DNA of 64,000 bases from Candidatus Cloacimonadota bacterium (GCA_049903315.1 JBNGBT010000005.1:128001-192000), one strand, 5' to 3'. Shown: positions 47,299-63,165, counted from the first letter of the stretch. A program made the numbers and translations. Notes: generated by a model not told the origin, from the sequence alone.

Positions 47299-47577
47299 AT
47301 GCAAGGTAAAAAACTCTATGTGGGAAATCTTGATTATTCAGTCACAAAAGACGATCTCTCTGAAATGTTTGCAGAGTTCGGCGAAGTGGTTGAAGTGATT
47401 ATCATCGACGGAAAAGGTTTTGGATTTGTTGAAATGTCAGAACCTGCTGAAGCTGAAAAAGCAATTGCTGACTTAGATGGAAAAGACCTTAAGGGTCGCG
47501 CCATGAAAGTCAACGAAGCACGTCCGAAAAGAGACAATTCCAGAGATAATCGACGCGACTTTAGACGTTCTTACTAA
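47299..47577 (+). CDS. RRM RNA-binding protein
   Basis: KLYVGNL (RNP2), KGFGFVEM (RNP1), VNEARPK. Confidence 0.95.
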   Translation: MQGKKLYVGNLDYSVTKDDLSEMFAEFGEVVEVIIIDGKGFGFVEMSEPAEAEKAIADLDGKDLKGRAMKVNEARPKRDNSRDNRRDFRRSY

Positions 47578-47604
47578 AGAATCAAGTATTGTCACTTAAT
47601 ATTT

Positions 47605-47638
47605 GGCATGATCATTAATTTGATCATGCCTTTTTTTT
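47605..47638 (+). terminator. Rho-independent terminator
   Basis: GGCATGATCA-TTAATT-TGATCATGCC followed by T8. Confidence 0.9.
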
Positions 47639-47796
47639 AATATTTTTACACGAATTTTCTTATATATTGAAAGTGGAGCATCTTTTCATAAAAGCTCATT
47701 AGTTTACCATCCATTTCAACATTTTCTTGACAGTTAAATATCTAATCATTCACACAATACTGTTGATAAAAGAATAAGAAAACTTAAAAGTTCTGA

Positions 47797-48708
47797 ATGT
47801 ATGGAAAGAAAACTGATGAAAGCACAAGTAAGATGAACCATTCGAGCAAAGTGAACACAAAATATCACCAAATCGAGCTGGTCAGCTTTGGGGATTGTAT
47901 TCCGAACGGCAACTTTACGATCCATTCAAGATTTCGAAGAACTATAAATTTACATAACAACTCACTGCTGATCTCAGTTGTGAATGAAGATATCGGCAAA
48001 GGACCTCTTAAAATAATTGTGAGAGGATTGGATTTTCAAAATATTCATTCTCTTTCAGTCTATAACAATGTTCTAATGATTAATAACTTTGTCCTTGTTG
48101 TGCACAACAATTTGAAATATTGCTCAAAACTATCTCTCCAAAAAGGAGATAAAGCAGTCTTTTCAAAAAAACTGGAATTATTGCACACCACTTTGCTTGA
48201 ATTGTGTAATGAAAAGAGTCTATGCTTTCTCCTTGATGAGAAGAGGGTAAGTAACTTCATATCAAGTTTTGAAAAGGAATTCGTGAAGAGAATGAAGTTA
48301 GGTTTAAACTTGATCCTAAAAGGAACAATGAACAGTTTGAGTGAAGGAATTATGCAGCTCAAAGGATGCGGATTCGGACTTACTCCGAGCGGAGATGATT
48401 TTATAGCCGGTTTACTGTCCGGTCTCTATCTAAAGCAGGAAATATTTGGTAAGGATTTCTCAGAAACCAGGAAGATAATCTACGAAACTTCATTGGGTGA
48501 AAACCTGATATCAAATTCGTATCTCACACTTGCACAAAAAGGATTGTTTACAGAAAATTTTAAAAATTTCATACATGCTCTTGTTCATGAAGGAAAAGAA
48601 AAACTCAATATATATATCCGAAGAATGTTAAATATAGGTGAAACCTCCGGCGCAGATACACTAGTCGGTTTTTGTTTTGCATTTGAGAAAGCAGGTGAAC
48701 TTTGGTAA
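47797..48708 (+). CDS. DUF2877 family protein (YahE/YlbF-like)
   Basis: IHSRF...INL, G.GFGLTPSGDDFI.G, IGETSGADTLVG; start uncertain (47797 or 47833). Confidence 0.85.
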   Translation: MYGKKTDESTSKMNHSSKVNTKYHQIELVSFGDCIPNGNFTIHSRFRRTINLHNNSLLISVVNEDIGKGPLKIIVRGLDFQNIHSLSVYNNVLMINNFVLVVHNNLKYCSKLSLQKGDKAVFSKKLELLHTTLLELCNEKSLCFLLDEKRVSNFISSFEKEFVKRMKLGLNLILKGTMNSLSEGIMQLKGCGFGLTPSGDDFIAGLLSGLYLKQEIFGKDFSETRKIIYETSLGENLISNSYLTLAQKGLFTENFKNFIHALVHEGKEKLNIYIRRMLNIGETSGADTLVGFCFAFEKAGELW

Positions 48709-50291
48709 TTAAAGGAAAAATCAAAAAGGGAGAATATTTCGATTCTGTCACGCTGATGATCGTTGCGCAAAAGATAAACAAGTTAGAAGGAATTACGGAT
48801 GCAGCAGTGGTCATGAATACTGCAGAGAACAGGTCGATACTGGAATCTTCGGGACTGCTTATTCCTGAATTTGATGATGCGAAGGCTTCCGACCTTTTGA
48901 TATGCGTCAACGCAGAAAGTGGTGGTATTGCAGAAAAGGCCATGCTGCAAGTCGATGAAATACTCAGAAATGTGCGGCATGAGATCAGTGATACTGAGGA
49001 TTTTCTTCCAAAGAGCTTGGAAACTGCCCTCAGAACTTTACCTGAAGCAAATCTTGTACTCATATCTGTTGCAGGTAAATATGCAGCACAGGAAGCAATG
49101 AAAGCGCTTAAACAAGGGCTTCATGTAATGATATTTTCGGACAATGTCTCTATCGAAGATGAAATCAGATTAAAAGAATATGCACAAGAAAATAACCTTC
49201 TTGTTATGGGTCCGGATTGTGGAACTGCGATCATTAACGGTATTCCTCTTGCGTTTGCCAATGTGGTAAATAGAGGTAATATCGGGATCGTTGCAGCTTC
49301 AGGGACCGGCTTGCAGGAGATCAGCTCGATCATCTCAAACACTGGGGCGGGAATTTCTCAAGCTATTGGAACGGGCGGCAGAGATGTGAAGAAAGAGGTC
49401 GGTGGAATCATGTTCCTTACAGCTCTCGATACATTAATTCATGACAAAAATACTGAAGTTATCGTGCTTGTTTCCAAACCTCCAGCAAAAGAAGTCCTCG
49501 CAAAGATATTAAAAAATGTAGAAAATATTCATAAGCCCGTGATTGCGATATTTTTAGGTGCTAATGAGAAATTATTCGAAGGTTCAAAAGCAATTACAGC
49601 GAAAACTCTCGAAGAAGCTGCATTGATCGCTGTGATGTTAGCACAAAAAAAAGAGAAAGATTCATTTCAAGAAATATTTGAGAAAAGAAGAAAAGGGATT
49701 CAGGAAATTGCAAAAAAAGAAGCGAAAACTAAAACTATTACTCAGAAATATCTTCGCGGACTCTTCTGTGGCGGCACTCTTTGTGAGGAAGCGCAGCTCA
49801 TTCTTCATGATTTGATTGGAGATATATACAGCAATAGTACATCAGAAAAAAAATACATTCTGAATGATCCCTGGCAAAGCAAAAAGAATGTGCTCATCGA
49901 TATGGGTGCAGATGAATTTACAGTTGGCAGACCGCATCCTATGATTGATTATTCTCTGCGGAACAGAAGAATTCTAAAAGAAGCAGAAGACCCGGAAGTC
50001 GCAGTCATACTCCTTGATGTCGTGCTTGGTTTCGGATCGAATATGAATCCTGCAGAAGAGTTGGTGCCAGTAATCAAGCAAGCTGAAAAAATAGCCCGGA
50101 AAGCTGGAAGACAACTTACTTTTGTGTGTTCTATTACCGGAACTGAACTCGATCCTCAAAACAAAAAGGAAGTCGAGAGGAAATTGAAAAGTGCCGGAGT
50201 GTTTGTCATGGAATCGAATGCTGCTGCTTCTGAATTCGCTGGTTTGATCATAAAGGATCTTTCGAATAAATTTCAGGATAAGGAGAGTTAA
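48702..50291 (+). CDS. FdrA/YahF family succinyl-CoA-synthetase-like protein
   Basis: YFDSVTLM, ISVAGKYA, FSDNV, MGPDCGTAII, ASGTGLQE, GTGGRD, SKPP, GLFCGGTL, TVGRPHPMID. Confidence 0.92.
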   Translation: MVIKGKIKKGEYFDSVTLMIVAQKINKLEGITDAAVVMNTAENRSILESSGLLIPEFDDAKASDLLICVNAESGGIAEKAMLQVDEILRNVRHEISDTEDFLPKSLETALRTLPEANLVLISVAGKYAAQEAMKALKQGLHVMIFSDNVSIEDEIRLKEYAQENNLLVMGPDCGTAIINGIPLAFANVVNRGNIGIVAASGTGLQEISSIISNTGAGISQAIGTGGRDVKKEVGGIMFLTALDTLIHDKNTEVIVLVSKPPAKEVLAKILKNVENIHKPVIAIFLGANEKLFEGSKAITAKTLEEAALIAVMLAQKKEKDSFQEIFEKRRKGIQEIAKKEAKTKTITQKYLRGLFCGGTLCEEAQLILHDLIGDIYSNSTSEKKYILNDPWQSKKNVLIDMGADEFTVGRPHPMIDYSLRNRRILKEAEDPEVAVILLDVVLGFGSNMNPAEELVPVIKQAEKIARKAGRQLTFVCSITGTELDPQNKKEVERKLKSAGVFVMESNAAASEFAGLIIKDLSNKFQDKES

Positions 50292-50292
50292 G

Positions 50293-51699
50293 ATGGCAAA
50301 AAAAGATCTTTTTAATAAAGACCTGAAAGTAATAAATATAGGACTTTCATCGTTCAAGGATTCTATTAAGGAATCTGATGCAGAGGTAGTTCAAGTTGAT
50401 TGGAAACCACCAGCAGAAATGGATGAAAAGATACTTCAAATACTCTTGAAAAATGAAGCCCATATTCAAATACAGAATAAAAAATGCCTCGAAACGATCC
50501 TGAATGGTGCACCATTTCTAATTAATCTTGATAGAGCGATAGATGTAATACCTGGAATGAAGAAAAATATGATCCTGCATGCAGGACCTCCAATCACCTG
50601 GGATAGGATGTGCGGACCAATGCGTGGTGCGATTATTGGAGCACTTATTTATGAAGGTATGGCAAAAAGTCCGGAAGAAGCAGAGAAATTAGCAGTTTCA
50701 GAAAAAATTGAATATTCTCCATGCCATGAACATAGCACAGTTGGACCGATGGCAGGAATCGTATCAGCATCTATGCCTGTTTTCGTTCTCAAGAATGAAA
50801 CCTATGGCAATCATGCTTATTGCACAATGAATGAAGGGCTTGGAAAAGTCTTACGTTACGGCGCTTTCAGCAATGAAGTCATTGAGAAACTGAAATGGAT
50901 GGAAGAAGTTCTATATCCGGCTTTAAAAAATGGAGTGAGTGAATTAGGCAAGATAGATCTGAAGAATATTATTGCTCAGGCACTTCACATGGGAGATGAA
51001 GTTCATAACAGGAATAGAGCTGCAACTTCATTATTGTATCGAACTATCGCTCCGGCTGTAATAAAAACAAACGACAACGATGTAGCAATCAAAGTGTTGG
51101 AATTTATTAATGGTAATGATCACTTTTTTTTGAACCTCTCTATGCCTGCGTGTAAAGTTACACTGGATGCTGCCAGAAATATAAAAGGAAGCAGTGTGGT
51201 TGTCGCGATGACGCGTAACGGAACGGATTTCGGTTTGCAGCTTTCGGGCACAGGAGATAAATGGTTTGTAGGACAAGCACCAGTACCTGATGCTCTTTTC
51301 TTTCCGGGATATACAAAGGATGATGCGAATCGGGATATTGGAGATAGCTCTATAACCGAAACAAACGGGCTTGGCGGATTTGCAATCGCAGCTTCACCAG
51401 CGATTGTTCAATTCATTGGGGGGGCAGCTCAGGATGCCTTGAATTATACACGGGAAATGTACGAAATCACCGCAGGTGAGAATAATATATATCAAATTCC
51501 ATCATTGAATTTTCGCGGTACTCCAACCGGGATTGATGTGATAAAAGTAAATGAGAAAAGGATCTTACCCTTTATCGACACAGGTGTCGCCCATAAAAAT
51601 GCAGGAGTCGGACAGGTCGGCGCAGGTGTTCTGAGTGCGCCAATGGAACCGTTCATTAAAGCGCTGCAAGGATTTGTCAAATCAATAGAAAAGAAATAA
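50293..51699 (+). CDS. DUF1116 family protein (YahG/YlbE-like)
   Basis: N-terminal VINIGL..F..VQVDWKPP, LHAGPPI, GPMRGA, PCHEH..VGPMAG, NEGLGKVLRYGA, MGDEVHNRN, DIGDSSITET, PFIDTGVAH. Confidence 0.92.
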   Translation: MAKKDLFNKDLKVINIGLSSFKDSIKESDAEVVQVDWKPPAEMDEKILQILLKNEAHIQIQNKKCLETILNGAPFLINLDRAIDVIPGMKKNMILHAGPPITWDRMCGPMRGAIIGALIYEGMAKSPEEAEKLAVSEKIEYSPCHEHSTVGPMAGIVSASMPVFVLKNETYGNHAYCTMNEGLGKVLRYGAFSNEVIEKLKWMEEVLYPALKNGVSELGKIDLKNIIAQALHMGDEVHNRNRAATSLLYRTIAPAVIKTNDNDVAIKVLEFINGNDHFFLNLSMPACKVTLDAARNIKGSSVVVAMTRNGTDFGLQLSGTGDKWFVGQAPVPDALFFPGYTKDDANRDIGDSSITETNGLGGFAIAASPAIVQFIGGAAQDALNYTREMYEITAGENNIYQIPSLNFRGTPTGIDVIKVNEKRILPFIDTGVAHKNAGVGQVGAGVLSAPMEPFIKALQGFVKSIEKK

Positions 51700-51728
51700 A
51701 ACATAGATAAATATTATAAGGAGTTATC

Positions 51729-52547
51729 ATGAACAATAACGAATTTCTGGAATTTATGGATAAGGTACGCGTCTATGACCTGACGCAGCCTTTGAGCATT
51801 CATACTCCACCTTGGCCCAGTTATATGCCATTGCAAATCCAATATTTCAAACGGCTTGCCGGAGCTCATATGGGGCAGGGAGCGAACGGACAGATCATCA
51901 AAACAAGCAACCATGTAGGAACGCATATCGATGGACAGATCCACTTCTTTGGAAGCGGAAAAACAATCGGGCAAGTTCCAATTCGGGATTGGATCGGACA
52001 GGGAGTGGTAGTCGATATCTCAGATGAAGTCGAAGATTATTCTCTCTATTCTCCTGACATGCTGATGAGTAAAGCTGAGATCAAGAAGGGTGATATCCTC
52101 ATAATTAATACAGGCTATCACCGCTATAGTTGGGATCAGCCGGAATCAGATGAAGTGCGCTATTTTGTAAAGCATCCAGGTCCCGATCCTGAATTCCATA
52201 AATGGGCTCTCGAGATGAAGTTCAAATGGATCGGTGTGGATTGTGGAAGCGCGGACCATCCCATGAATACAATCATCAGAGATTGGCATCCAAAAAAATT
52301 CATCGAAGCAGATACAAAGCTGCAAGAAAAATACAATAAAACCTGGGACGAAATGTTCCCACTTGATATATACTACCAAGTTATGCATCTGAATCTTTTC
52401 CCCAAGGGATTGCTCCATGCGGAAAATCTTGGTGGAGAAATTAACAAGGTGAATAATAAGCGTGTCTGGATTGGACTGTTCCCTTTACGTGGAATTGAAA
52501 TGGAATCCTCAATGTGCCGTATTGTCGCGCTTGAACCTCCTAAATAG
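51729..52547 (+). CDS. Cyclase-family (kynurenine-formamidase-like) metal-dependent amidohydrolase
   Basis: YDLTQPL...TPPWP, HVGTHIDG (HxGTHxD), GDILII.TG, IGVD, HAENL. Confidence 0.88.
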   Translation: MNNNEFLEFMDKVRVYDLTQPLSIHTPPWPSYMPLQIQYFKRLAGAHMGQGANGQIIKTSNHVGTHIDGQIHFFGSGKTIGQVPIRDWIGQGVVVDISDEVEDYSLYSPDMLMSKAEIKKGDILIINTGYHRYSWDQPESDEVRYFVKHPGPDPEFHKWALEMKFKWIGVDCGSADHPMNTIIRDWHPKKFIEADTKLQEKYNKTWDEMFPLDIYYQVMHLNLFPKGLLHAENLGGEINKVNNKRVWIGLFPLRGIEMESSMCRIVALEPPK

Positions 52548-52558
52548 GAATGCATCTC

Positions 52559-52619
52559 AACCACGAAAAACGCCCGCTGTCGTTACACTTTGGCGCGGCA
52601 GGCGAAAGGCACAAAAAAT
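52559..52619. repeat. 9-nt-periodic repeat interrupted by a 30-bp GC-rich palindromic insert
   Basis: AACCACGAA-AAACG[CCCGCTGTCGTTACACTTTGGCGCGGCAGG]CGAA-AGGCACAAA; the uninterrupted version is the reverse complement of ~11905-11933. Confidence 0.6.
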
Positions 52620-52770
52620 AGAAAATATATGATGAATTGTTTTTATCCATGGATTGCATCAAATCATCAGAGTATTTACACTGAAATTTGAATTTTGCCA
52701 TTATTTTTGTCATAAGAAATTAGGATTTAGAAATTATTGCGCTTTGAAAAATTTAAAGCGAAAGGATTAT

Positions 52771-53643
52771 ATGTCTATACTTCATGATTTCGAATATTTT
52801 AAACCAGCTGATTTAAAGACAGCAGTCGAGTTCCTTGATCAGTTCGGAAACAGAGCTAAAATCCTTGCAGGTGGTACCGATCTTGTCGTACAGATGAAAG
52901 AGAATATCCATGCTCCTGACGCGGTGATAGATATCAAAGGGCTTGCGGAACTCCATGAAATATTATTTGAAGATAATACGCTCTTCATTGGTGCGTGTGT
53001 GACCTTTTCCGAATTGATCGAATCGGAGATCATAAAACAGTTTTTTCCTTTGATGAAGGAGATGTCCCTGACAGTTGCTTCTGTTACTATTCGCAATAGA
53101 GCCACAATAGTTGGAAACATATGCTCTGCGATTCCTTCTGCAGATTCAGCTCCGATCCTGCTTGTTTATGATGCTGACGTAATTTTAAAAAGTGTATCAG
53201 GAGAAAGGATTATCCCAATCCGAGATTGGTTTACAGGTCCCAAAAAGACAATTTTGCGATCTGATGAACTTGTGACCGGTATTGCAATTCCACTCCCACA
53301 AAAGAAAAATGCAGGATGTTATGAAAAACTCGGAAGATATTCCGGTGAGGATCTTGCACAAGCAGGAGTGAGTATTCTGGTATTTGAAGACCTTCAATAC
53401 AAGGTCGCATTTTGTGCCGTAGGACCAGTTCCGAAAAGGGCGAATCATGTGGAAAAATTTCTTAATGGAAAAAAAATCTCTGATGATATTATCGAAGAAG
53501 CCAAGCAGCTTCTCAAGAAAGAAATATCTTCGATCTCAGATATCAGAGCAACTGAAGAATATCGCACGCATATGATGAGCGTGATGTTTGAAAGAGGATT
53601 GAAAAAAGTAATTGCTCAACTGCAGGGAGGTGGAGATGTCTAA
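52771..53643 (+). CDS. Xanthine dehydrogenase family FAD-binding subunit
   Basis: FEYFKP, LAGGTDL, IRNRATIVGN, SADSAP, ISDIRAT.EYR; ATG 52771 after AAGGA. Confidence 0.93.
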   Translation: MSILHDFEYFKPADLKTAVEFLDQFGNRAKILAGGTDLVVQMKENIHAPDAVIDIKGLAELHEILFEDNTLFIGACVTFSELIESEIIKQFFPLMKEMSLTVASVTIRNRATIVGNICSAIPSADSAPILLVYDADVILKSVSGERIIPIRDWFTGPKKTILRSDELVTGIAIPLPQKKNAGCYEKLGRYSGEDLAQAGVSILVFEDLQYKVAFCAVGPVPKRANHVEKFLNGKKISDDIIEEAKQLLKKEISSISDIRATEEYRTHMMSVMFERGLKKVIAQLQGGGDV

Positions 53644-54091
53644 GATTCAGTTTATTCTCAATCATGAAAAAAGAGTTGTCGATGTCGCACCTCATGAAAC
53701 GCTCCTTGAAGTGCTTCGTGAAAAGCTTGGTGTGAAAAGTCCCAAGTGTGGTTGTGACAAGGGTGATTGCGGTGCATGTAATGTGCTTTTAAACGGGAAA
53801 AGTGTGCGCAGTTGCTTGATCCTCGCTATCGAGGTTGATGGACAGGAAGTGGTCTCAGTCGAAGGTATTTCAAAAGATGGCTTGAGTAAAGTTCAGAAAG
53901 CAATGATAGACAAGAATGCATTCCAGTGCGGATTCTGTGCACCTGGTGTGATCATTTCTGCGACAGAGCTTCTCAATGCAAATGAACATCCAAGCAGGGC
54001 AGAGATACAAGAAGCACTTTCAGGAAATCTATGCCGTTGTACAGGATATTTGCCGATCCTTGAAGCAGTTGAAAATGCAACGAAAGAGTAG
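53636..54091 (+). CDS. Xanthine dehydrogenase family 2x[2Fe-2S] subunit
   Basis: GCDKGDCGAC..SC, QCGFCAPG, GNLCRCTGY. Confidence 0.95.
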   Translation: MSKIQFILNHEKRVVDVAPHETLLEVLREKLGVKSPKCGCDKGDCGACNVLLNGKSVRSCLILAIEVDGQEVVSVEGISKDGLSKVQKAMIDKNAFQCGFCAPGVIISATELLNANEHPSRAEIQEALSGNLCRCTGYLPILEAVENATKE

Positions 54092-54096
54092 AATTG

Positions 54097-54268
54097 CACG
54101 CAGAGAACGCCAAGAACCGCGGAGACCGCAGAGAAAAGAATAAAAATAATTAGATTTATTGAATTTTCAAATTCGATAAATAATGAAGATAGACTTTTTT
54201 ATAAATATGAAATATTACAAAATATCTCAGCGTCCTTTGCGTTTTTCTCTGCGAGCTTTGCGTGAGAT
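54097..54268. repeat. ~172-bp element with 9-nt-periodic imperfect inverted arms (copy 2)
   Basis: Left CACGCAGAGAACGCCAAGAACCGCGGAGACCGCAGAG; right CTCAGCGTCCTTTGCGTTTTTCTCTGCGAGCTTTGCGTG; AT-rich core. Confidence 0.75.
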
Positions 54269-54283
54269 ATTAGGAGTTTTTAT

Positions 54284-56641
54284 ATGGATGATTTAAAATA
54301 TGTTGGAAAACCTATTGTTAGGATAGATGGGAAAGATAAAGTAAGCGGTGCAACTCTTTATACAGATGATCTTGAGTACGGACAGAATATGCTCTACGCT
54401 GCACTTGTGGAAAGCACAGAAGCTCATGCGCTTATCAAGAAAATAGATACTTCCGAAGCTGAAAAATATCCACGAGTGATCGCAGTATTCACCGGCCAAG
54501 ATTTTCCCTATAAATTTGGACTCTACATGAAGGACAGATATATTTTTGCAATGGATCGGGTACGCTTTGTAGGAGAGCAAATCGCAGCAGTGGTTTCCCG
54601 AGATAAAAGAATTGCCGAACGAGCAGCAAAACTGGTAAAAGTAGAATATGAGTCATTACCAGCAATACTTGATCAGATGGAATCATTAAAAAAGGATGCT
54701 ACACTCATCCATCCTGATCTTGGAGAATACGTACATGTTCCGTGGTTTTTTCCTCAAGCAAAAACAAATATTGCTCACTGGCGTAAAACGAGACGTGGTG
54801 ATGTTGAAAAAGGTTTCGCAGAAGCAGATTATATCCTCGAAGATACATATCGTGTTCCAAGATATGCGCATTGTCCGATCGAAACGCATGCGGCGGTCGG
54901 TTTGTGTGATCTCTCAGGCAGGTTGACTGTCTGGGCATCATCGCAGTCCCCGCATACGCAAAGAAATCTCTTTGCTGAAGCACTTGCTCCATTAGGTTTT
55001 ACCCATAAAGACATACGTGTGATTGCTCCTCCAATCGGTGGGGGATTTGGCGGAAAAGCAGGTGTCTCAATGGAGATACTTGCAGCAGCAATGGCAACAA
55101 AACTGCGTGGAAATCCCGTGCAGGTCATCTGGTCGCGTGAAAGGGAATTTTATAATACCTCACAACGACTTGGAGTGATCGCAAAACTCAAAATCGGTGT
55201 AAAAAATGATGGCACATTTACTGCAATAGATCACAGACTGTATTGGGATGCAGGTGCATCAGCAGAATATGGCGCAAATGTCGTGAATGCGATCGGACTT
55301 TCAGCAACCGGACCCTATCGCTTCCCAAATATCTTAATTGATTCAGTGTGCTTGTACACGAACCTTCCTCCATGCGGTGCATATCGTGGATTTGGCTATT
55401 CTGAGTTCATGTTCGGACTGGAATCCCATGTGGACAGAATTGCAGCACATCTCAAACTCGATCCTGTCGCACTCAGGAGAAAAAATGCTATTAAAGAAGG
55501 TGATATTCTTGCATATGGTGTTCCCATGAATCCCAGCGGATTACATCAAGCGATAGATGCAGTTGCTAAAGAGATCGAGTGGGGAAAGAAAGAAGAAACC
55601 AAAGATCCTCATAAAGCGATTGGAAAGGGTTTCTCGCTTATATGGAAAGCACCTGCAATGCCTCCCAATGCTTCATCAGCAGCTTTTGTAAAATTCAGTG
55701 AAGACGGAAGTTTGAATATTCTTGTTTCAGGTATGGATATGGGACAGGGATTTCTTACGGTCATGGCTCAAATTGCTGCAGAAATTCTTACTGTTCCTGT
55801 CTCCAAGATACGAACGGAAAATCCCGATACTGACAGAAATCCGTATGAATGGCAGACCGTTGCTTCACACGTTACATGGTCATGCGGAAACGCAGTGCGG
55901 AATGCAGCGATTAATGCACGAGATCAGATATTTGAGGTGATTGAAAGGGCATGTGTGCTTCCCAAAAATGAATTATATCTTGAAGATGAAAAAGTAAAGT
56001 GCAGAACAAAACCTGATTTTGCGCTCCCGCTCAAAGATTTTGTAATAAACGGCATTCAAGCTGAAGACGGGACTTTCAGAGGAGGTCCTATTCTCGGAAA
56101 AGGTATTTTCATGCCTGAGTTCACTTCTGCGTACAGTGATCCCGAAACAAGTCAGGGCGGTCATCCAAATGTGCATTATACAGTCGGTGCAGCAGCAATA
56201 ATCCTGGAAGTGGATAAAGATACAGGTAAGATGCACATCAAAAAAGCAGTGGAAGCGATCGATGCAGGTAAAGCGATAAATCCCGATCTGGTGAAAGGTC
56301 AAATTACAGGCGGATTGCTTCAGGGACTTTCCACGGTGCTCTATGAAGATATGAGATATGATGACAAAGGAAAATTACTCAATCCGAATTTTACTGATTA
56401 TAAAATTCCAACTGCAAAAGATATTCCTGACGAAATAGTGCCGATCATTATCGAAGTTCCTCAACCGGATGGACCTTTTGGTGCGCGTGGTGTGGGTGAG
56501 CATACGATGATCCCGGCAGCTCCAATGGTGGCAAATGCAGTGCAGGATGCCCTCGGTATCAGGATAAAAACCATGCCGATCACTGCGGAAAAAGTTGCAC
56601 TCGCTGTACTCAAAAATAAAAATAAGAAAAATCAGAAATAA
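54284..56641 (+). CDS. Xanthine dehydrogenase family molybdopterin-binding subunit
   Basis: RIDGKDKVSG, VRFVGE, GGGFGGK, AYRGFG, DMGQG, DAGKAINP, GQITGG, DYKIPT, GPFGARGVGE (catalytic Glu). Confidence 0.95.
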   Translation: MDDLKYVGKPIVRIDGKDKVSGATLYTDDLEYGQNMLYAALVESTEAHALIKKIDTSEAEKYPRVIAVFTGQDFPYKFGLYMKDRYIFAMDRVRFVGEQIAAVVSRDKRIAERAAKLVKVEYESLPAILDQMESLKKDATLIHPDLGEYVHVPWFFPQAKTNIAHWRKTRRGDVEKGFAEADYILEDTYRVPRYAHCPIETHAAVGLCDLSGRLTVWASSQSPHTQRNLFAEALAPLGFTHKDIRVIAPPIGGGFGGKAGVSMEILAAAMATKLRGNPVQVIWSREREFYNTSQRLGVIAKLKIGVKNDGTFTAIDHRLYWDAGASAEYGANVVNAIGLSATGPYRFPNILIDSVCLYTNLPPCGAYRGFGYSEFMFGLESHVDRIAAHLKLDPVALRRKNAIKEGDILAYGVPMNPSGLHQAIDAVAKEIEWGKKEETKDPHKAIGKGFSLIWKAPAMPPNASSAAFVKFSEDGSLNILVSGMDMGQGFLTVMAQIAAEILTVPVSKIRTENPDTDRNPYEWQTVASHVTWSCGNAVRNAAINARDQIFEVIERACVLPKNELYLEDEKVKCRTKPDFALPLKDFVINGIQAEDGTFRGGPILGKGIFMPEFTSAYSDPETSQGGHPNVHYTVGAAAIILEVDKDTGKMHIKKAVEAIDAGKAINPDLVKGQITGGLLQGLSTVLYEDMRYDDKGKLLNPNFTDYKIPTAKDIPDEIVPIIIEVPQPDGPFGARGVGEHTMIPAAPMVANAVQDALGIRIKTMPITAEKVALAVLKNKNKKNQK

Positions 56642-56677
56642 ATATTCATTATAAATAATAAATACGGAGGATACAAG

Positions 56678-57373
56678 ATGGATGTAGAATTGGAAAAAAT
56701 GTTGCGACCTGTGGAGATTGATATGCCGGAATATCCGGCAAAAGTAATTACTTTGGCAACAGGCGGACAGATGGTTGTCCGTCCGGCAACACGAAGGGAT
56801 GTGCCAACGATCTTGAAGGCAGTTAAATCTACAATAAAGATCGAGCGAGATTTCTATGATGTGGTCGGCTCACGTGTGTATGCCGAGCTCCTTGCCTGGT
56901 ATAAATATCGCTACAGAAATTGCTATGTGCTTATCGGACAGATCAATAATATTCTTGTGGGTATGGTGAATGGACGCATGCTCACAGACAAGATCGGCAT
57001 CAGTCTGCATACACTGGCAATTGAGCGTGGGCTACGCATCGGCGCTCATCTTTTTGCGGCAAAAATGGAACATCATATTGAATTTCTTAACCAGGACGAG
57101 GTATGGATCACTGCGGAATCTCCTATCGGTTTTAGGCGTTGGATGATAGAGTATGATCTGATAAAACAGCCGGGTGTACAGCACGAGCTTGGCGGTGCGG
57201 ATTCTTTTATGCTGACAAGAGACCTGTATTTCAAGAGTAAGGATCGGCTTGTCGCAGGAACCCGACCCTGTCCGGAAGATCTTCTTGAAAAAGCAAAGAG
57301 CAAGATCATTATTGCTGATGATGAATCAATTGTCACACAGATCTGTGGTGCGAAAGGAGCGTGGTCAAAATGA
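56678..57373 (+). CDS. Putative GNAT-fold N-acyltransferase
   Basis: VVRPATRRD start, central beta strands, RGLRIGAHL resembling acyl-CoA motif A; GGAGG RBS; coupled to the thiolase by an ATGA overlap. Confidence 0.5.
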   Translation: MDVELEKMLRPVEIDMPEYPAKVITLATGGQMVVRPATRRDVPTILKAVKSTIKIERDFYDVVGSRVYAELLAWYKYRYRNCYVLIGQINNILVGMVNGRMLTDKIGISLHTLAIERGLRIGAHLFAAKMEHHIEFLNQDEVWITAESPIGFRRWMIEYDLIKQPGVQHELGGADSFMLTRDLYFKSKDRLVAGTRPCPEDLLEKAKSKIIIADDESIVTQICGAKGAWSK

Positions 57374-58554
57374 GAAATGTCGCAATATTAGGTGTCGGAA
57401 TGACCGATTTCGGAAGGTTGGAAGATGATACTCTTATGGATATTCTATCATCGGCTTCCATCCATGCAATTGATGACGCAGGTATCGATCCTAAATTGAT
57501 CGATCTGGTATATGTCGCAAATATGGGGGGAGGTATCCTGAATCATAGAACAGCTATTGCTAGTGGTCTGGTTGATAATATTGGATTGATCCCTGCTGCT
57601 GCCGACACGATTGAGAACGGACCTGCTTCCGGTGGTTCTGCTATCAAGGACGGTGTGATGGCTGTTGCTTCCGGCTATTATGATTTTGTTCTCGTAGTTG
57701 GCGGAGAAAAGATGAGAGATGTAACCGGTTGGAGAGCAACGGATTTCGTGGCTACTTTGACCCATCCCGATGCGGAATATATTTATGGGATTACTTTGCC
57801 CGGTATGGCTGGGATGTTCGCAAATCTCTATATGGAAAAATATGGATATACCCGTCGTCATCTCGCTGAAGTTGCAATAAAAAATCATAAAAATGCACTG
57901 ATGAATCCTTATGCACATGTTCAAATGGACATTGCCATGAAGGGTATTATTGATTCTCCTGATGCAGTTGTGAATAACTCTCCACTTGCGGAACCCTTGC
58001 ATTTGTTTGACTCCTGTCCTGTAAGCGACGGAGGTGCCGCAATTATTCTTTGCCCTGAAGATCGGGTGAAGGAATTCAATAAACCTGTGATACGAGTCGC
58101 AGGATTCGGACAAGCAACAGATACACTCACTCTTGCAGAAAGGGATGATCCTACTGACCTGAAAGCTGTTACTCTTGCATGTGAGCAGGCATACAAAAGA
58201 GCAGGTATCACTGCAAAGGATATTGATTTTGCTGAACTGCACGACGCATTCACCATTTTGGAGATCGCTGAAGCAGAACATGCAGGACTGTATAAAAAGG
58301 GGGGATATAAAAAAGCAATCGAGTCGGGGGATAACAAGATCACAGGCAGTCTGCCGATCAATCCTTCAGGCGGATTAAAATCCAGAGGTCATCCTGTGGG
58401 TGCTACGGGTGTGGCACAAGCAGTGGAAGTGACGTGGCAGTTGCGTGGAGAAGCAGGCGGAAGACAGGTGAAGAACGCCAAAACAGCTTTAACAGTGAAT
58501 TTTGGCGGATTCGGAAACAATGTCGTTGCTCTTGTGCTCAGAAGGGAGAAATAA
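57370..58554 (+). CDS. SCP2/archaeal-type thiolase-fold protein lacking the nucleophilic Cys
   Basis: VAILGVGMT.FG, ENGPASG (normally ExACASG), GGEKM, KNH.NA..NPYA, SDGGAA, ELHDAF, NPSGGL.SRGHPVGATG, NFGG. Confidence 0.9.
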   Translation: MRNVAILGVGMTDFGRLEDDTLMDILSSASIHAIDDAGIDPKLIDLVYVANMGGGILNHRTAIASGLVDNIGLIPAAADTIENGPASGGSAIKDGVMAVASGYYDFVLVVGGEKMRDVTGWRATDFVATLTHPDAEYIYGITLPGMAGMFANLYMEKYGYTRRHLAEVAIKNHKNALMNPYAHVQMDIAMKGIIDSPDAVVNNSPLAEPLHLFDSCPVSDGGAAIILCPEDRVKEFNKPVIRVAGFGQATDTLTLAERDDPTDLKAVTLACEQAYKRAGITAKDIDFAELHDAFTILEIAEAEHAGLYKKGGYKKAIESGDNKITGSLPINPSGGLKSRGHPVGATGVAQAVEVTWQLRGEAGGRQVKNAKTALTVNFGGFGNNVVALVLRREK

Positions 58555-58898
58555 TGAAAAGAAAAAATGACAAAGCATATAAATGTAAGAAGTGCGGGAG
58601 AGTCACCTATCCGGAGCGCGTTGTGTGTCTGAATTGCGGAAGTCGAGAATTTGATATTATCCCTTTTACAGATGAATGCACTTTACTCACCTTCTCACAG
58701 ATCTTCCAGTTGCCATGGGGTATCAATGACAGGTATCTTACTCTTGGAGTGTGCAAATTTGATAACGGCATAAAAGCAATGGGACGAATCACAACTCCGA
58801 AAGTAAAAAATGGTATGAGAATGAAAGCAAATTGGAAGTTATTCCGGGAAATTGCTGGCGAAGACGTTTGGGGATGGGAGTTTGAACCGATAAAATAG
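58554..58898 (+). CDS. DUF35 (Zn-ribbon + OB-fold) acyl-CoA-binding partner protein
   Basis: CKKCG...YPER.VC.NCG followed by an OB-fold; TAATG overlap with the thiolase stop. Confidence 0.88.
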   Translation: MKRKNDKAYKCKKCGRVTYPERVVCLNCGSREFDIIPFTDECTLLTFSQIFQLPWGINDRYLTLGVCKFDNGIKAMGRITTPKVKNGMRMKANWKLFREIAGEDVWGWEFEPIK

Positions 58899-59031
58899 AA
58901 GATATTAGACTTGTAGTTTCTACATGCCCTGAAAAGAAATATGATTGAGAAAGGTCTTTGATGAGCTTAATCGAGCATATCACAGTGTAATATATAGAGC
59001 AGTGATTTAAATGTATAAATGAGGAGAAAAA

Positions 59032-59469
59032 GTGAAAATCGGTATATTTATTTGTGACAGATTCAGCACCTGTGCCGGCGGGAAATGCCTGAGAGCAATG
59101 CGGAACCGCGAGGGTGCCTTTAATGTTTATGATAAGAGTGAACCTCTTGAAGTGGTGGGCTACACCTCTTGCGGCGGATGTCCCGGCGGAAACATAGAAT
59201 ATGCACCTGTCGAGATGATTAAAAATGGCGCAGAAGCGATTCATCTGGCTACCGGATTTGTCGTCGGTTATCCTCCATGCCCACATATTATACAATTTAA
59301 AAAATTCATTGAAGAAAAGTACGATATTCCCGTCGTGATCGGGACACATCCGATTCCGCAGAATTATTACATTACACATACAAATCTCGGAACATGGGAA
59401 TCACCCGAGTGGGACGAGATCATCAAGCCGACACTTGCAGATGAGGTTATGCGCAAATCGTATGATTGA
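59032..59469 (+). CDS. CGGC domain-containing protein
   Basis: IGIFIC...CAGGKCL, SCGGCPG, IHLATG, CP, VVIGTH. Confidence 0.9.
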   Translation: MKIGIFICDRFSTCAGGKCLRAMRNREGAFNVYDKSEPLEVVGYTSCGGCPGGNIEYAPVEMIKNGAEAIHLATGFVVGYPPCPHIIQFKKFIEEKYDIPVVIGTHPIPQNYYITHTNLGTWESPEWDEIIKPTLADEVMRKSYD

Positions 59470-59548
59470 GAAATGGTACTTAGGAAGAATACATTTATTG
59501 AGATTTTTCCGAATTTTAATTGTATTGATGTACTCAAATAAATGAATG

Positions 59549-59557
59549 TGGTATGAT
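59549..59557 (+). promoter_or_regulatory. Possible extended -10 promoter for the permease
   Basis: TGGTATGAT (TGn-TATGAT) upstream of the GAGGTG RBS and GTG start. Confidence 0.35.
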
Positions 59558-59574
59558 AAAAATGAGGTGTTAAT

Positions 59575-60828
59575 GTGAAAGACTTAAACGGCAAAAATTT
59601 TGTTATTGGTTTTCAACAGATGTTCGTGATGTTTGGTGCCACTGTTCTTGTGCCGCTGCTCACCGGTTTGGATGTGGGTGTAACACTCTTCTCTGCAGGT
59701 ATTGGCACACTTTTATTTCATGTGATCACCAAGTTTAAGGTGCCTGTTTTTTTAGGTTCATCTTTTGCCTTTATTCCGGGTATCATTGCAGTATCCACCG
59801 CAAAAGGCGGCTCATTGCCGGAAGCCCTGGGCGGCGTTGTGATCGCAGGTTTGGTCTATATTGTCGTTGCCATTATCTTTAAATTTATCAGCGTAAAAAC
59901 ATTACATAAGATACTGCCCCCATTTGTCACAGGACCAATGATAATCCTCATCGGTTTGATACTGGCACCGGTCGCGATCAGCAATGCAAACGGAACGAAT
60001 TCAGCAGCGGTAGTTGAGATGATCGGTGTGAATGGCTGCTGGTTTATTGCTTTGTGTACATTTGCAGTGGCAGTTTTTGTAAAAATCTTCTTCGCAAAAG
60101 TGGGGCAGAAATTCTTATCAATGCTTCCTGTCCTTTTTGCGCTTGTTATCGGCTACCTGCTGTCAATCTTGTTAGGAATAGTTGATTTTACCACAGTTAA
60201 TGAAGCTGCCTGGATCGGTTTGCCGAAGTTTTCGCTTCCGGTTTTTTCAGTGCGTTCAATATCAATAATCGCACCAATTGCAATAGTGACCATTGTAGAA
60301 CACTTCGGTGATATTCTTGCAATCGGAAATGTAGTGGGAAAGGATTTTTTCAAAGATCCGGGCATACATAGAACATTGATGGGTGACGGACTCGCGACGT
60401 CACTTTCTGCGATGATCGGTGGACCTGCAAATACCACGTATAGTGAAAATACAGGCGCCGTAGCTCTAACAGGAAATTATAATCCGATTATTATGAGAAT
60501 TGCTGCAGTGTGCGCAATTGTGCTTTCTTTGGTCCCGAAATTTACCGCAGTTATCTCTACAATTCCAGTGCCGGTCATCGGTGGAATATCGATCTTGCTC
60601 TTTGGAATGATCTCTGCAATTGGTATCAAGAACATGGTTGATAACAAAGTTGATCTTACAGACCCCAAGATCCTCATGACATGCGCTGCAATGCTTGTTT
60701 TGGGATTGGGTGGAGCAAAATTTACTATCGGAAATTTCGAACTCGAAGGTTTGGGGCTTGCTGCAATTGTGGGAGTCCTTCTCAATATCATTTTGAATTT
60801 TAAGGAGATAGCATCAAAGCAAGAATAG
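59575..60828 (+). CDS. NCS2/NAT nucleobase permease, UraA/PyrP-type
   Basis: Q.MF.MFGATVLVP, FLGSSFAFI, EHFGD, DPG.HRTL.GDG, NTTYSENTG, VIGG..ILLFG.I. Confidence 0.93.
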   Translation: MKDLNGKNFVIGFQQMFVMFGATVLVPLLTGLDVGVTLFSAGIGTLLFHVITKFKVPVFLGSSFAFIPGIIAVSTAKGGSLPEALGGVVIAGLVYIVVAIIFKFISVKTLHKILPPFVTGPMIILIGLILAPVAISNANGTNSAAVVEMIGVNGCWFIALCTFAVAVFVKIFFAKVGQKFLSMLPVLFALVIGYLLSILLGIVDFTTVNEAAWIGLPKFSLPVFSVRSISIIAPIAIVTIVEHFGDILAIGNVVGKDFFKDPGIHRTLMGDGLATSLSAMIGGPANTTYSENTGAVALTGNYNPIIMRIAAVCAIVLSLVPKFTAVISTIPVPVIGGISILLFGMISAIGIKNMVDNKVDLTDPKILMTCAAMLVLGLGGAKFTIGNFELEGLGLAAIVGVLLNIILNFKEIASKQE

Positions 60829-60996
60829 CATTATTCATTAGGAAGTGCATACAGTTCATCGATTAAATTCATGAAGTAAGGTTGGGGGTATCTATACTAT
60901 AGAAATTTTAAACTTGACGTGATAAATTTATTTTTTAAAAGAATAAATAGTGTTTTAAGTACTTTGAATTTTCTTTAAAATTTATTAGGACATCAT

Positions 60997-63165
60997 GTGA
61001 AAAAAAGAATAATTTCGATCATTTTTTTTCTAGTACTGCTACTTTCTACTTCTGAATTATATTCACAACAACAAAGGACATTTCGTGTTGGAGTATATAA
61101 CAACTATCCCAAAGTATATATCACTGATCAGGGAGATGTGCTGGGAATATATCCTGAGTTGCTTGATTATATTGCATTACAAGAAAACTGGAATATTGAA
61201 TATATTGAAGGAACATGGAATGAGGGACTGCAACGGCTTGAAAATGCTGAAATCGATATGATGGTGGATGTAGCTTTTTCTGAAGAAAGAGAAAAAAAAT
61301 ATGATTTTAACAATGAGACAATTTTAATAAACTGGGGTTGTATTTATACAAAATCCAAACTAAATATTAACTCCGTTGTTGATTTGAACGGAAAAACTGT
61401 CGCAGTAATGAAGGAGAGCATTCATACTACAGGTGAAGACGGCATATATAAACTTGTTGATCAGTTTAGGGTGAAGTGTTCATTTATCGAAGTGAATGAT
61501 TATTATGAAGTATTTGATCTGATAAAAAAGGGGGAGGTTGATGCAGGAGTGGTCAACCGGATATTTGGTGCAGATTTCGAAGATAAGTATGGTGTAAAGA
61601 AAACCAATTTTATCTTCAATCCAATTCAGCTTAGATTTGCGTTTCCTAAAAATTCTCTCCTCTCAGAATATTTAATAACAGAGATCGATGAAAATCTGAA
61701 AGTACTGCAAAAAAATACAAATTCAATATATTACACTACCTTAGCAAGATACAACCTTTATCCTAAGAAAGGAGTTCCTGAGTGGTTGATCCCTCTTATT
61801 ACTGCTTTGATTATAATTACTATATTTTTTATTTTGATGTATCTCCTCATGAAGTGGAATATAAAGCAGCAAACGCGAGTTCTTAAAATTACAAATCTTG
61901 AACTAAAGAAGGAGATCGCAGAACATCAGCAAACCCTAAAGGAATTGGAGATCAGCAGAGAGAACTATAGAAATTTTGTAGAAAATATTCCAGGTTTGGT
62001 CTATATGTACGACCAGGATGAGTACGGTACAAGAACGCCGGTTCTGAGCACAAATAGGAATGAGGAATTTCTCGGTAAAGATGTGGCAGAGGAGATTGAG
62101 AAAAATTATAGCAGTTTCTTCGATTATATTCTTCCTGAAGATAAAAAAAGAATACAGAGACTATCCAAAGAGGTGGAAAATTCAGGAAAAGCTTTTAATT
62201 ATGAATACAGAGTCCATATCCCTGATAATCAGATAAAATGGTTCAGATCGATTGGGCGTGTGAAAATACTCCCTGATGGAAAGCGAAGATGGCAGGGTGT
62301 AATACTGGATATTAATGAGCGGAAAAAAGCGGAACAGGAACTTGAACTGTATCGTGGACAGCTAGAAAAACTAGTGAAAACCAGAACAGAGGATCTTGAA
62401 CAAAAGACTAAAGAACTGGAAAAAGCAAACATAGAACTGACAGAAGCAGATAAACTCAAATCAATATTCCTCGCTAGTATGAGTCATGAACTCAGAACTC
62501 CACTTAACTCAATTATCGGATTTACCGGCATACTTCTTATGGGCATGGTGGGAGAACTCTCGACTGAACAGAAGACTCAGTTGAAGATCGTTAAAAATAG
62601 TGCAAATCATTTATTAGAACTCATTAATGACATACTCGATATTTCTAAGATTGAAGCAGGGAAAGTGGATCTTCATAAAGAAACATTTATGATGAATGAT
62701 ATAATCACAGAGGTATTGGAGACATTCAAACACAGCGCAGATGAAAAAGGATTAGAACTCATTATACAATTTGATGAGAACATCGAAGTCTATACGGACC
62801 TGAGAAGATTCAAGCAGGTGATCATCAATCTTGTTGGGAATGCGGTCAAATTTACGGATCAAGGCAGTGTGAATGTTATTACTGAACTCAAAGATGGCGG
62901 AGAAGTAGACATTACTGTGAAAGATACAGGTGTCGGGATTAAAAAAGAAGATATGGGGAAACTGTTTGAGCCGTTCCAGCAGGTCGATTCCGAGCTTACA
63001 AAAAAACGTGAAGGTACAGGTTTGGGTCTTCATCTGACACAGAAGATCATGGATCTATTGAATGGGAAAATACATGTAGAAAGTATACCTGGAGAAGGTA
63101 CAATTTTTATAATGACCTTCCTACACATTATAAAGGATAATAATGAAGAAAGTATTAGTAATTGA
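60997..63165 (+). CDS. Sensor histidine kinase (periplasmic solute-binding domain, TM, PAS, HisKA, HATPase)
   Basis: RVGVYNNYP SBP-like region, PAS (YEYR..KWFR...G...DI.ERK), FLASMSHELRTPLN, NLVGNAVKFT, DTGVGI, GTGLGL. Confidence 0.95.
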   Translation: MKKRIISIIFFLVLLLSTSELYSQQQRTFRVGVYNNYPKVYITDQGDVLGIYPELLDYIALQENWNIEYIEGTWNEGLQRLENAEIDMMVDVAFSEEREKKYDFNNETILINWGCIYTKSKLNINSVVDLNGKTVAVMKESIHTTGEDGIYKLVDQFRVKCSFIEVNDYYEVFDLIKKGEVDAGVVNRIFGADFEDKYGVKKTNFIFNPIQLRFAFPKNSLLSEYLITEIDENLKVLQKNTNSIYYTTLARYNLYPKKGVPEWLIPLITALIIITIFFILMYLLMKWNIKQQTRVLKITNLELKKEIAEHQQTLKELEISRENYRNFVENIPGLVYMYDQDEYGTRTPVLSTNRNEEFLGKDVAEEIEKNYSSFFDYILPEDKKRIQRLSKEVENSGKAFNYEYRVHIPDNQIKWFRSIGRVKILPDGKRRWQGVILDINERKKAEQELELYRGQLEKLVKTRTEDLEQKTKELEKANIELTEADKLKSIFLASMSHELRTPLNSIIGFTGILLMGMVGELSTEQKTQLKIVKNSANHLLELINDILDISKIEAGKVDLHKETFMMNDIITEVLETFKHSADEKGLELIIQFDENIEVYTDLRRFKQVIINLVGNAVKFTDQGSVNVITELKDGGEVDITVKDTGVGIKKEDMGKLFEPFQQVDSELTKKREGTGLGLHLTQKIMDLLNGKIHVESIPGEGTIFIMTFLHIIKDNNEESISN

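Follow-up and report, generated by a model that had tools for sequence, protein, structure and literature searches.

A conserved gene cluster of a Cloacimonadota bacterium and its proposed role in the oxygen-independent degradation of uracil or thymine

The cluster and its proposed pathway

The 64,000-nucleotide (nt) stretch JBNGBT010000005.1:128001-192000 of Candidatus Cloacimonadota bacterium (GCA_049903315.1, a 96%-complete genome), referred to here as the window, carries a cluster of twelve genes on the + strand at positions 47797..60828. Judged from the genes and their neighbours in other genomes, the cluster most likely degrades uracil or thymine without oxygen and conserves energy in doing so; for the first four steps of the route set out below the probability is put at about two in three. 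Eleven of the twelve genes are a conserved unit, common to many uncultured anaerobic bacteria. The cluster is real, conserved and, as far as searched, undescribed: no description of this gene combination was found in a literature search that left most subscription journals outside.

In the proposed pathway a UraA-type permease would import uracil or thymine (step 1), and a three-subunit molybdenum (Mo) enzyme would hydroxylate C6 with water, giving barbiturate, or 5-methylbarbiturate from thymine (step 2). A cyclase-family hydrolase, in place of barbiturase, would open the ring to ureidomalonate (step 3). The conversion of uracil to barbiturate and on to ureidomalonate is known chemistry, and ureidomalonate is oxalurate with one additional CH2. 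In step 4 the YahEFG-type AllFGH enzyme would cleave this acyl-ureide with phosphate to malonamate and carbamoyl phosphate, the precedent being E. coli AllFGH acting on oxalurate, and carbamate kinase would make ATP from the carbamoyl phosphate. In step 5 a complex of the GNAT, thiolase-like and DUF35 proteins (the trio) may turn malonamate into acetyl-CoA, NH3 and CO2. The GNAT protein would run thioester-amide exchange backwards, from malonamate and CoA to malonyl-CoA and NH3 (step 5a), and the cysteine-less thiolase fold, with two His, would decarboxylate the malonyl-CoA and pull step 5a across a shared CoA site (step 5b). The thymine variant would give methylmalonyl-CoA; methylmalonyl-CoA mutase and MmdA are encoded in the host away from the cluster. 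This exact division of labour in step 5 is tentative, with the odds somewhat against it. We likewise offer only as a possibility the complete picture, a fermentative pyrimidine route that saves energy twice (as carbamoyl phosphate and as acetyl-CoA) and ends in a new type of DUF35 complex.

An earlier reading of the window, made from sequence only, had proposed that a nucleobase is imported, hydroxylated by a Mo enzyme and opened at the ring, that an acyl-ureide (e.g. ureidomalonate) is then split by phosphorolysis, and that the carbon chain is handled with CoA. That outline, as a set of putative reactions, fits every comparative test described below, and, in agreement with it, no characterised pathway matches the cluster gene for gene.

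Textbooks describe the anaerobic breakdown of uracil and thymine as a reductive process. The proposed pathway, if true, would be an oxidative, oxygen-independent alternative at no fewer than 445 places in GTDB genomes (stretches encoding the marker GNAT protein), carried mainly by Anaerolineae and by other sediment and digester lineages that recycle the nucleic acids of dead cells. It gives testable functions to four unassigned families: the Mo-hydroxylase clade, the cyclase subfamily, the YahEFG branch of AllFGH and a GNAT family without a Pfam entry. A barbiturase would be added to the cyclase family, and enzymes of the YahEFG branch could be seen generally as phosphorylases of acyl-ureides. 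The GNAT protein would make a CoA thioester from a primary amide without ATP, with the cysteine-less thiolase fold decarboxylating at the shared CoA site.

Genes of the cluster

Twelve open reading frames (ORFs), all on the + strand, were located between 47797 and 60828 in the order that had been read from the sequence. The families named for them were borne out, eleven by library profile matches and the 231-residue ORF by its predicted GNAT fold (aa, amino acids):

47797..48708, +, AllH/YahE-like subunit (DUF2877), 303 aa; PF11392, 85 bits
48702..50291, +, AllF/YahF (FdrA) subunit, 529 aa, CoA-binding and CoA-ligase-like domains; PRK06091, 535 bits (cut-off 433)
50293..51699, +, AllG/YahG subunit (DUF1116), 468 aa, of YahG length; PF06545, 328 bits
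51729..52547, +, cyclase-family metal amidohydrolase, proposed barbiturate ring-opener, 272 aa; PF04199, 118 bits
52771..53643, +, XDH-family FAD subunit (FAD_binding_5), 290 aa, start at the ATG at 52771
53636..54091, +, XDH-family 2x[2Fe-2S] subunit (Fer2/Fer2_2), 151 aa; library profiles
54284..56641, +, molybdopterin subunit, proposed uracil/thymine C6 hydroxylase, 785 aa; MoCoBD_1/2
56678..57373, +, GNAT-fold protein, the cluster marker, 231 aa; predicted fold, without Pfam
57361..58554, +, SCP2/archaeal-type thiolase-fold protein (thiolase N/C), proposed malonyl-CoA decarboxylase; alignments to 7yvy and 6esq
58557..58898, +, DUF35 zinc-ribbon/OB partner (zf-ChsH2), 113 aa; PF12172, four conserved Cys
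59032..59469, +, CGGC-domain protein, a passenger; PF08821
59575..60828, +, permease of the NCS2 family, UraA (uracil) branch (Xan_ur_permease); best model uracil permease PRK10720

An alternative ORF-finder start for the FAD subunit, the TTG at 52654, makes the protein longer than its relatives.

Conservation across genomes and metagenomes

The GNAT protein was the marker in the search for loci. In GTDB genomes 445 of 463 pattern matches encode a relative, and a metagenome scan seeded with a distant GNAT homolog gave at least 530 of at least 599 matches; the best 80 were examined in each case. The 80 genome loci contain the thiolase-like gene in 80, DUF35 in 75, the cyclase in 69, AllG in 50, AllF in 46, the Mo subunit in 44, AllH in 21, NCS2 in 17 and CGGC in 1. 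For the 80 metagenome loci the corresponding numbers are 75, 56, 46, 46, 45, 23, 19, 19 and 0. These counts are affected by the many short contigs and, for AllH, by a divergence too rapid for tblastn. The CGGC gene, which had been counted as a member, therefore falls outside the conserved unit.

Loci with 9 kb on both sides give a clearer view. The full core (AllF, AllG, cyclase, GNAT, thiolase-like, DUF35 and an XDH subunit) is present in 22 of 29 such genome loci, in seven block orders, and in 12 of 15 such metagenome loci, in four. The seven and three exceptions mostly miss one block within the 10-kb flank; L016, L034 and L179 miss more. The thiolase-like gene adjoins the GNAT gene, with overlapping starts, in all ten of L010-L018 and L129. 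The conservation in other genomes that the sequence-only reading had predicted is thus found in both collections.

The closest loci, with 91-96% GNAT identity, are labelled Cloacimonadota. The marker has a patchy distribution in the host phylum, being present in 11 of 232 genomes and 4 of 66 genera. In genus g9, represented by six single-contig genomes, four carry mmdA-FAD-FeS-Mo-NCS2-allH-allF-allG-cyclase-GNAT and two carry mmdA-NCS2 alone. Two non-adjacent blocks have been lost together, as would be expected for one pathway. Where the locus is split, AllG was found elsewhere in the genome in 5/5 cases tested. No match to the GNAT protein was obtained on plasmids. The one archaeal carrier, a metagenome-assembled genome (L016:5950-12218), has allH-allF-allG head to head with the trio, its AllG being 69% identical to that of the window; the marker occurs in only 1 of 301 genomes of that phylum, which suggests transfer from bacteria.

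Permease and neighbouring genes

The best model for the window permease is that of the uracil permease PRK10720 (351 bits, cut-off 477). It keeps UraA Glu241 and Glu290, and Asp246 replaces UraA His245; an Asp at that position is present too in one plasmid homolog linked to upp. Plasmid homologs of the permease adjoin upp (uracil phosphoribosyltransferase) in both of the two inspected. The 33 aligned cluster permeases belong to three or more sequence types, yet all share Y[S/G]EN where UraA has Glu290; one of them lies above the uracil-permease cut-off (645 > 477), and in none is found the Gln motif that we take to mark purine-type permeases. A uridine phosphorylase, over cut-off, directly precedes the trio in L015 and L018. 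Genes resembling cytosine deaminase occur in 4/80 genome and 3/80 metagenome loci, and carbamate kinase in 1/80 and 10/80, respectively; the one carbamate kinase checked was over cut-off. Genes for purines or allantoin are seldom found nearby (L035, L053, L065 and L168). The neighbouring genes most likely point to pyrimidines, which narrows the 'nucleobase' of the sequence-only reading.

The Mo enzyme, the cyclase and AllFGH

The FAD, 2x[2Fe-2S] and Mo subunits are all present, with the catalytic Gln and Glu conserved (Gln221 and Glu739 of the Mo subunit), as in hydroxylases of the xanthine-oxidase family. The Mo subunit lies below every NCBIfam equivalog cut-off (XdhA, 499 vs 780 bits), and 54 of 55 sequences have Ala, after GGGFGGK, at the place of the Glu which, in role and numbering, is presumably the purine-binding residue of xanthine dehydrogenase. 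Xanthine dehydrogenase proper was rejected on both counts. In a quick tree the Mo subunits of the cluster are one clade (26 of 35 rows, SH-aLRT 98), apart from E. coli XdhA and XdhD and from two host paralogs.

The cyclase has the metal motif of its family (kynurenine formamidase and isatin hydrolase; HxGTHxD), reading HxxTHxDG in 112/112 aligned rows, and the distal residues His230 and Glu232 are kept. Its best solved relatives are kynurenine formamidases (E 1e-8); of the profiles PF04199 is matched, and the barbiturase family (TIGR02714) is not. Nor did the host genome give any match to that barbiturase/cyanuric acid hydrolase family, in a search in which controls were silent and with a model that gives 551-702 bits on true members. 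Haloarchaeal homologs with 44-45% identity adjoin a Mo hydroxylase in 4/5 loci inspected, and in one locus the genes around the homolog (45%) include cytosine deaminase and CodB as well as a Mo hydroxylase. Haloarchaeal plasmids (L120, L122, L124 and L125) carry a module of the cyclase homolog, a CoxSLM-type hydroxylase, XdhC, MocA-like and hydantoinase-like genes and nucleobase permeases, with no AllFGH nearby.

AllF, AllG and AllH are all represented. The AllF-type protein is 43.7% identical to YahF and 40.2% to AllF, and the AllG-type protein 46.4% to YahG over 468 aa and 43.2% to AllG over 410 aa, so that both are nearer to YahF/YahG; the AllH-like protein, compared over about 120 aa, is 33% identical to AllH of E. 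coli and 27% to YahE. YahEFG is still uncharacterised in the E. coli K-12 annotation. For AllFGH of E. coli, interconversion of oxalurate with oxamate and carbamoyl phosphate is described (PMC11326118). AllG matches were found in 194 plasmid records. [quoted passage not shown] In nitrifiers YahEFG-type genes are described beside biuret and triuret hydrolases (PMC12625717). Taken together, these contexts place the YahEFG branch repeatedly downstream of enzymes that yield open-chain acyl-ureas. In the cluster the cyclase would take the place that the AtzD/barbiturase-family enzyme has on the plasmids, a swap of the ring-opener that favours the proposed pathway. On the plasmids of Aminobacter (L117:6433-11526) and Citrobacter (L119:1733-9375), cyanuric acid hydrolase is flanked by AllF/AllG(/AllH) and carbamate kinase. 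The layout suggests that carboxybiuret or biuret is broken down there by phosphorolysis, with a yield of ATP.

The GNAT, thiolase-like and DUF35 proteins

Neither Pfam nor NCBIfam has a model that matches the 231-aa ORF. Its predicted structure (pLDDT 85.5) is a GNAT fold, the best match having Z 13.3 with a root-mean-square deviation of 3.1 A over 162 residues at 10% identity, and 2559 homologs were collected. Motif A, (Q/R)xxGx(G/A), is degenerate in the window protein (Arg117 and an invariant Gly122) and canonical in some distant homologs. Ser148 ends beta-5, and Trp155 stands, by sequence position only, where the His of the dyad of malonyl-CoA decarboxylase (MCD) is expected. MCD and CurA were not among the fold matches listed, which does not exclude them.

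The thiolase fold of the neighbouring protein is supported by 286 bits to 7yvy. Pro88 replaces the nucleophilic Cys in 134/134 sequences, the place of the acid/base Cys reads HDAF in 131 and HDPF in 3 of them, and Asn380 is found at the CxG position. His294 is present in 134/134, and His344, of the oxyanion GHP, in 132/134, the other two being truncated. The description 'Cys-less thiolase' made from the sequence holds for the catalytic positions; elsewhere Cys219, Cys231 and Cys274 remain. A true or SCP2 thiolase was rejected on the loss of both the nucleophilic and the acid/base Cys, and a retro-aldolase of the Ltp2/Sal type on the motif ELHDAF, which stands in place of YDHF or YDCY with the catalytic Tyr. 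In the DUF35 protein C10, C13, C24 and C27 are invariant (34/34).

Structure prediction of the three proteins together gave a complex score of 0.86, compared with 0.00 for the best of three controls. Of solved complexes 116 of 157 reach the mark for this score, as do 2 of 215 mismatched pairs; these counts hold only roughly for three chains with custom alignments. Between runs at least 98% of contacts are the same, and partner pLDDT is 83 or more. The predicted interface comprises thiolase residues 183-207, which include an insertion absent from archaeal thiolases, and GNAT residues 24-30 and 118-127, the latter at the CoA-binding motif. The GNAT protein would contact mainly the thiolase-like protein, and DUF35 only at 57-59. 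It is thus predicted to bind the thiolase-like/DUF35 pair. No solved GNAT-thiolase complex was seen among the structure matches for either protein. In the archaeal thiolase/HMG-CoA synthase/DUF35 complex a shared CoA site channels the intermediate.

The formation of malonyl-CoA and NH3 from malonamate and CoA is estimated to be uphill by roughly 15-20 kJ/mol, and step 5a would need to be coupled to decarboxylation, which would give the reason for a complex. A thiolase-superfamily fold unable to form an acyl-enzyme can still stabilise a thioester enolate, with a pair of His in that role, and the ketosynthase-like malonyl decarboxylases (KSQ) are of this design. GNAT enzymes chiefly convert thioesters to amides (PMC9703596). 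For KSQ two Thr are named as the enolate stabilisers (PMC11350588), and MCD and CurA are described as GNAT-fold decarboxylases (PMC3701320).

Two lineages, g9 and G481 (92% complete), keep the GNAT protein without this thiolase. The thiolase-like/DUF35 pair is dispensable in both and the GNAT protein is not. At residue 27 of the interface all five thiolase-less GNAT proteins have Lys or Arg, compared with 0/160 of the others. The thiolase-less g9 copies start with an MmdA-type carboxyltransferase, 30 bp upstream. Bacterium G481 carries an archaeal-type operon of HMG-CoA synthase-like, Cys-thiolase and DUF35 genes (L212:440-3838).

In L176, L187 and L190 the trio is found with DUF485, an ActP/MctC-like monocarboxylate symporter and a true nitrilase, AllFGH and XDH not being nearby; this context fits a cyanoacetate-type C3 substrate with a malonyl skeleton. 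In a second subtype (L112, L021, L024, L026 and L108) an amidase-like nitrilase and CaiB stand between or beside allF/allG. Some cases have a CoxL-type Mo enzyme and CoxG, with MmdA nearby in L024 and L026 and methylmalonyl-CoA mutase in L034; the subtype is possibly thymine-specific.

Weighing of the evidence

The reading joins what was observed (genes, families, conservation, residues and joint loss) to a predicted complex and to substrates and reactions that are all inferred. Several observations weigh against the proposed pathway. The window permease has the Asp at the place of UraA His245 and scores below the uracil-permease cut-off. Carbamate kinase is not at the window locus, being encoded elsewhere in the host, where uridine phosphorylase and cytosine deaminase were not found with the queries used. 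The tree of Mo subunits held no uracil/thymine dehydrogenase sequence. The haloarchaeal cyclase context is mixed, with xanthine-type permeases and a hydantoinase-like gene, and cytosine deaminase in only 1/5 of the loci inspected. An amidase-like nitrilase (8/80) and a CaiB CoA-transferase (7/80) stand beside an intact trio in genome loci and look redundant with step 5. The five thiolase-less GNAT proteins come from two lineages only. MmdA is found both where the cluster has disappeared from a genome and where the thiolase is retained, which weakens the argument that MmdA replaces the thiolase and leaves it only suggestive. Most loci are from Anaerolineae or close kin, Chloroflexota making up about 70 of the first 80, and the counts therefore overstate independence; moreover, L012 is the same as L208, and L197 and L206 look like one contig.

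Two alternatives change the substrate. That the Mo enzyme and cyclase instead convert a purine-derived ureide to oxalurate (e.g. via parabanate), with AllFGH keeping its E. coli substrate and the trio disposing of oxamate, is considered unlikely. Oxalurate is the only proven substrate of AllFGH (PMC11326118), PucR-type regulators flank five metagenome loci, YgeX and a hydantoinase lie upstream in L168, and the haloarchaeal permeases and hydantoinase-like genes agree with such a route. It is opposed by the 80 genome loci, where AllC, AllD and AllE are unmatched, and by the host, which has no AllC or AllE match and an AllD match far below cut-off. The lack of the presumed purine-type Gln motif in the 33 permeases and the Ala at the presumed purine-binding Glu also argue against purines, as does the chemistry: oxalyl-CoA cannot be decarboxylated through an enolate, and neither the thiolase fold nor MmdA would fit. 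Another six-membered N-heterocycle, be it a pyridine, a triazine or a modified pyrimidine (uracil with a substituent at C5, derived from tRNA or DNA), is a rather unlikely substrate. In its favour, and against uracil or thymine, nicotinate dehydrogenase is the best solved match to Mo residues 201-386, the substrate half (E 1.7e-26); however, the window protein has not kept the Arg near the nicotinate carboxylate, to which we assume a role in binding, and a pyridine would yield no acyl-ureide for AllFGH. The occurrence of YahEFG-type trios beside cyanuric acid hydrolase, and beside biuret and triuret hydrolases (PMC12625717), speaks for triazines, although cyanuric acid needs no Mo enzyme and gives the trio no carbon chain. 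Also in favour of another substrate, the second subtype, in L112, has its CoxL-type Mo enzyme outside the clade of the cluster.

If steps 1-4 are granted, the same upper route with a different division of labour in the trio has a little under an even chance. The cyclase or an amidase might first hydrolyse malonamate to malonate; the GNAT protein might be a malonyl-CoA decarboxylase (MCD/CurA-like) or an acetyl-CoA:malonate CoA-transferase, with the thiolase fold doing the other half; or it might take ureidomalonate directly and release urea. GNAT-fold decarboxylases do exist (MCD and CurA; PMC3701320), but by sequence position Trp155 replaces the dyad His in the helix after beta-5. The expected product of a true nitrilase preceding the trio is the acid, malonate, and amidase-like and CaiB genes are present in some loci, whereas most loci are without an amidase. 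The thiolase-less genus has a gene resembling a CoA-transferase some 7 kb upstream; against these variants, the GNAT protein has been retained in the absence of the thiolase, next to a carboxyltransferase. It is very improbable that AllFGH-cyclase, the XDH trio and the GNAT trio are independent modules which tend to gather. Four gaps exceed 100 bp, and the GNAT trio stands alone in L015, L017, L018, L176, L179, L187 and L190; against this, all blocks are kept across many block orders, two non-adjacent blocks are lost jointly, AllG is elsewhere in the split-locus genomes tested, and the Mo subunits are one clade.

Comparison with known systems

An oxidative pyrimidine pathway with uracil/thymine dehydrogenase, barbiturase and ureidomalonase was reportedly found in Rhodococcus and relatives by Soong et al. 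in 2001 and 2002. The proposed route shares with it the Mo-dependent oxidation to barbiturate and the hydrolytic opening to ureidomalonate. It differs in having a cyclase-family protein in a host without an AtzD/barbiturase-family match, in the proposed cleavage of ureidomalonate by phosphate rather than hydrolysis to urea and malonate, and in its carriers, which are mostly uncultured anaerobic lineages. The cluster thus appears to work like oxidative pyrimidine degradation and, having no barbiturase and no ureidomalonase-type step, is not a member of it by its enzymes.

With AllFGH (FdrA-YlbE-YlbF; PMC11326118) and YahEFG of E. coli the cluster has in common three subunits, the yahEFG gene order, the AllG length and a carbamate kinase often alongside. 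Unlike AllFGH it is nearer to YahF/YahG, is without allB/C/D/E, and would act on a substrate one CH2 longer. The TrzD/AtzD-AllFG-carbamate kinase plasmid clusters (Aminobacter SR38, Citrobacter) also begin with an amidohydrolase that opens a ring, with YahEFG-type genes and carbamate kinase after it, but their substrate is a triazine, they have neither a Mo enzyme nor the trio, and the role of AllFG there is putative. The reductive uric acid pathway (XdhD, YgfK, SsnA, HyuA, YgeW, YgeY, YgeX; bioRxiv 10.1101/2025.05.19.654654) resembles it as anaerobic nucleobase catabolism with an XDH-family enzyme and ureido phosphorolysis; the enzymes are different. That route was rejected for the cluster, where YgfK, SsnA, HyuA, YgeW, YgeX and YgeY are not found, as was the classical allantoin route, with no allantoin genes in the cluster.

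Known thiolase/DUF35 complexes include the archaeal thiolase/HMG-CoA synthase (6esq), PhlABC, BbsAB, Ltp2-ChsH2 and the Sal-Shy aldolases (PMC12329534). They share the SCP2-type thiolase fold, the Cys4 DUF35 and a third enzyme docked, with the channelling CoA site noted above in 6esq. Here the third partner is predicted to be a GNAT protein, Pro occupies the place of the nucleophile, and there is neither YDHF nor YDCY and no acid/base Cys. KSQ and MCD/CurA would offer parallels, in that thiolase-superfamily folds, presumably Cys-less, and GNAT folds can decarboxylate malonyl thioesters. No sequence relation to them was shown, and where two Thr are named for KSQ (PMC11350588) the cluster protein has two His.

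Host genome

Searches of the host for AllC and AllE gave no match, and AllD scored 190 bits (cut-off 496). The earlier statement that allantoin genes are missing is correct for the cluster; elsewhere in the genome a gene resembling allantoinase scores 347 bits (cut-off 358). The search with PF01180 gave no full-length dihydropyrimidine dehydrogenase, and its one full match lies beside a dihydroorotase-like gene; this result is weak and is not used as support. Other contigs hold parts of a urate route and purine-type genes (YgfK over cut-off, SsnA-like, XanQ-like at 48%, GuaD-like), as well as two carbamoyltransferases, a carbamate kinase and MocA-like and XdhC-like genes; that the purine genes stand apart from the cluster favours the pyrimidine reading. 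Reductive-urate-type genes are scattered over G000:C11:191952-200440 and G000:C3:12740-22389 (YgfK, two tandem carbamoyltransferases and carbamate kinase; XDH-like, SsnA-like and allantoinase-like genes and an unassigned 494-aa protein), with no match to YgeX or YgeY among them.

Transcript layout and intergenic elements

The gaps at the eleven junctions are, in order, -7, 1, 29, 223, -8, 192, 36, -13, 2, 133 and 105 bp. The tight coupling described from the sequence therefore applies to six junctions (overlap or at most 30 bp), while four are wider than 100 bp. Two further elements were noted:

47605..47630, +, terminator-like hairpin 3' of the upstream RRM gene, a 10-pair stem and T run; consensus match only
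54092..54283, strand not applicable, long hairpin element in the FeS-Mo gap, arms 54097-54137 and 54243-54264; fold z = -5.2

The first would end the upstream RRM gene, so the cluster probably begins a new transcript. Scans for promoters (35 vs 38 expected) and terminators (11 vs 10.4 expected) were at chance level, and Rfam gave 0 matches within 46500-61200. One metatranscriptome contained 0.06 of the words, in the form of 38 short contigs from relatives, without strand or level, and speaks neither for nor against a single transcript.

At the site of the second element two relatives, L010 and L014, have a GxxExxY ORF. The 192-bp gap is thus read as an insertion scar or empty cassette site and not as evidence of a break. 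The arms of the element are repeated, and L207 has a similar ORF between the Mo subunit and GNAT genes; an ORF of the GxxExxY type is in or near the cluster in 6/80 loci. Upstream of the RRM gene, 46880-47040 is a similar repeat-rich, AT-cored intergenic stretch, possibly another empty element, and 46600-46805 is a short open stretch which resembles the 3' end of a peptidase-like gene without a start.

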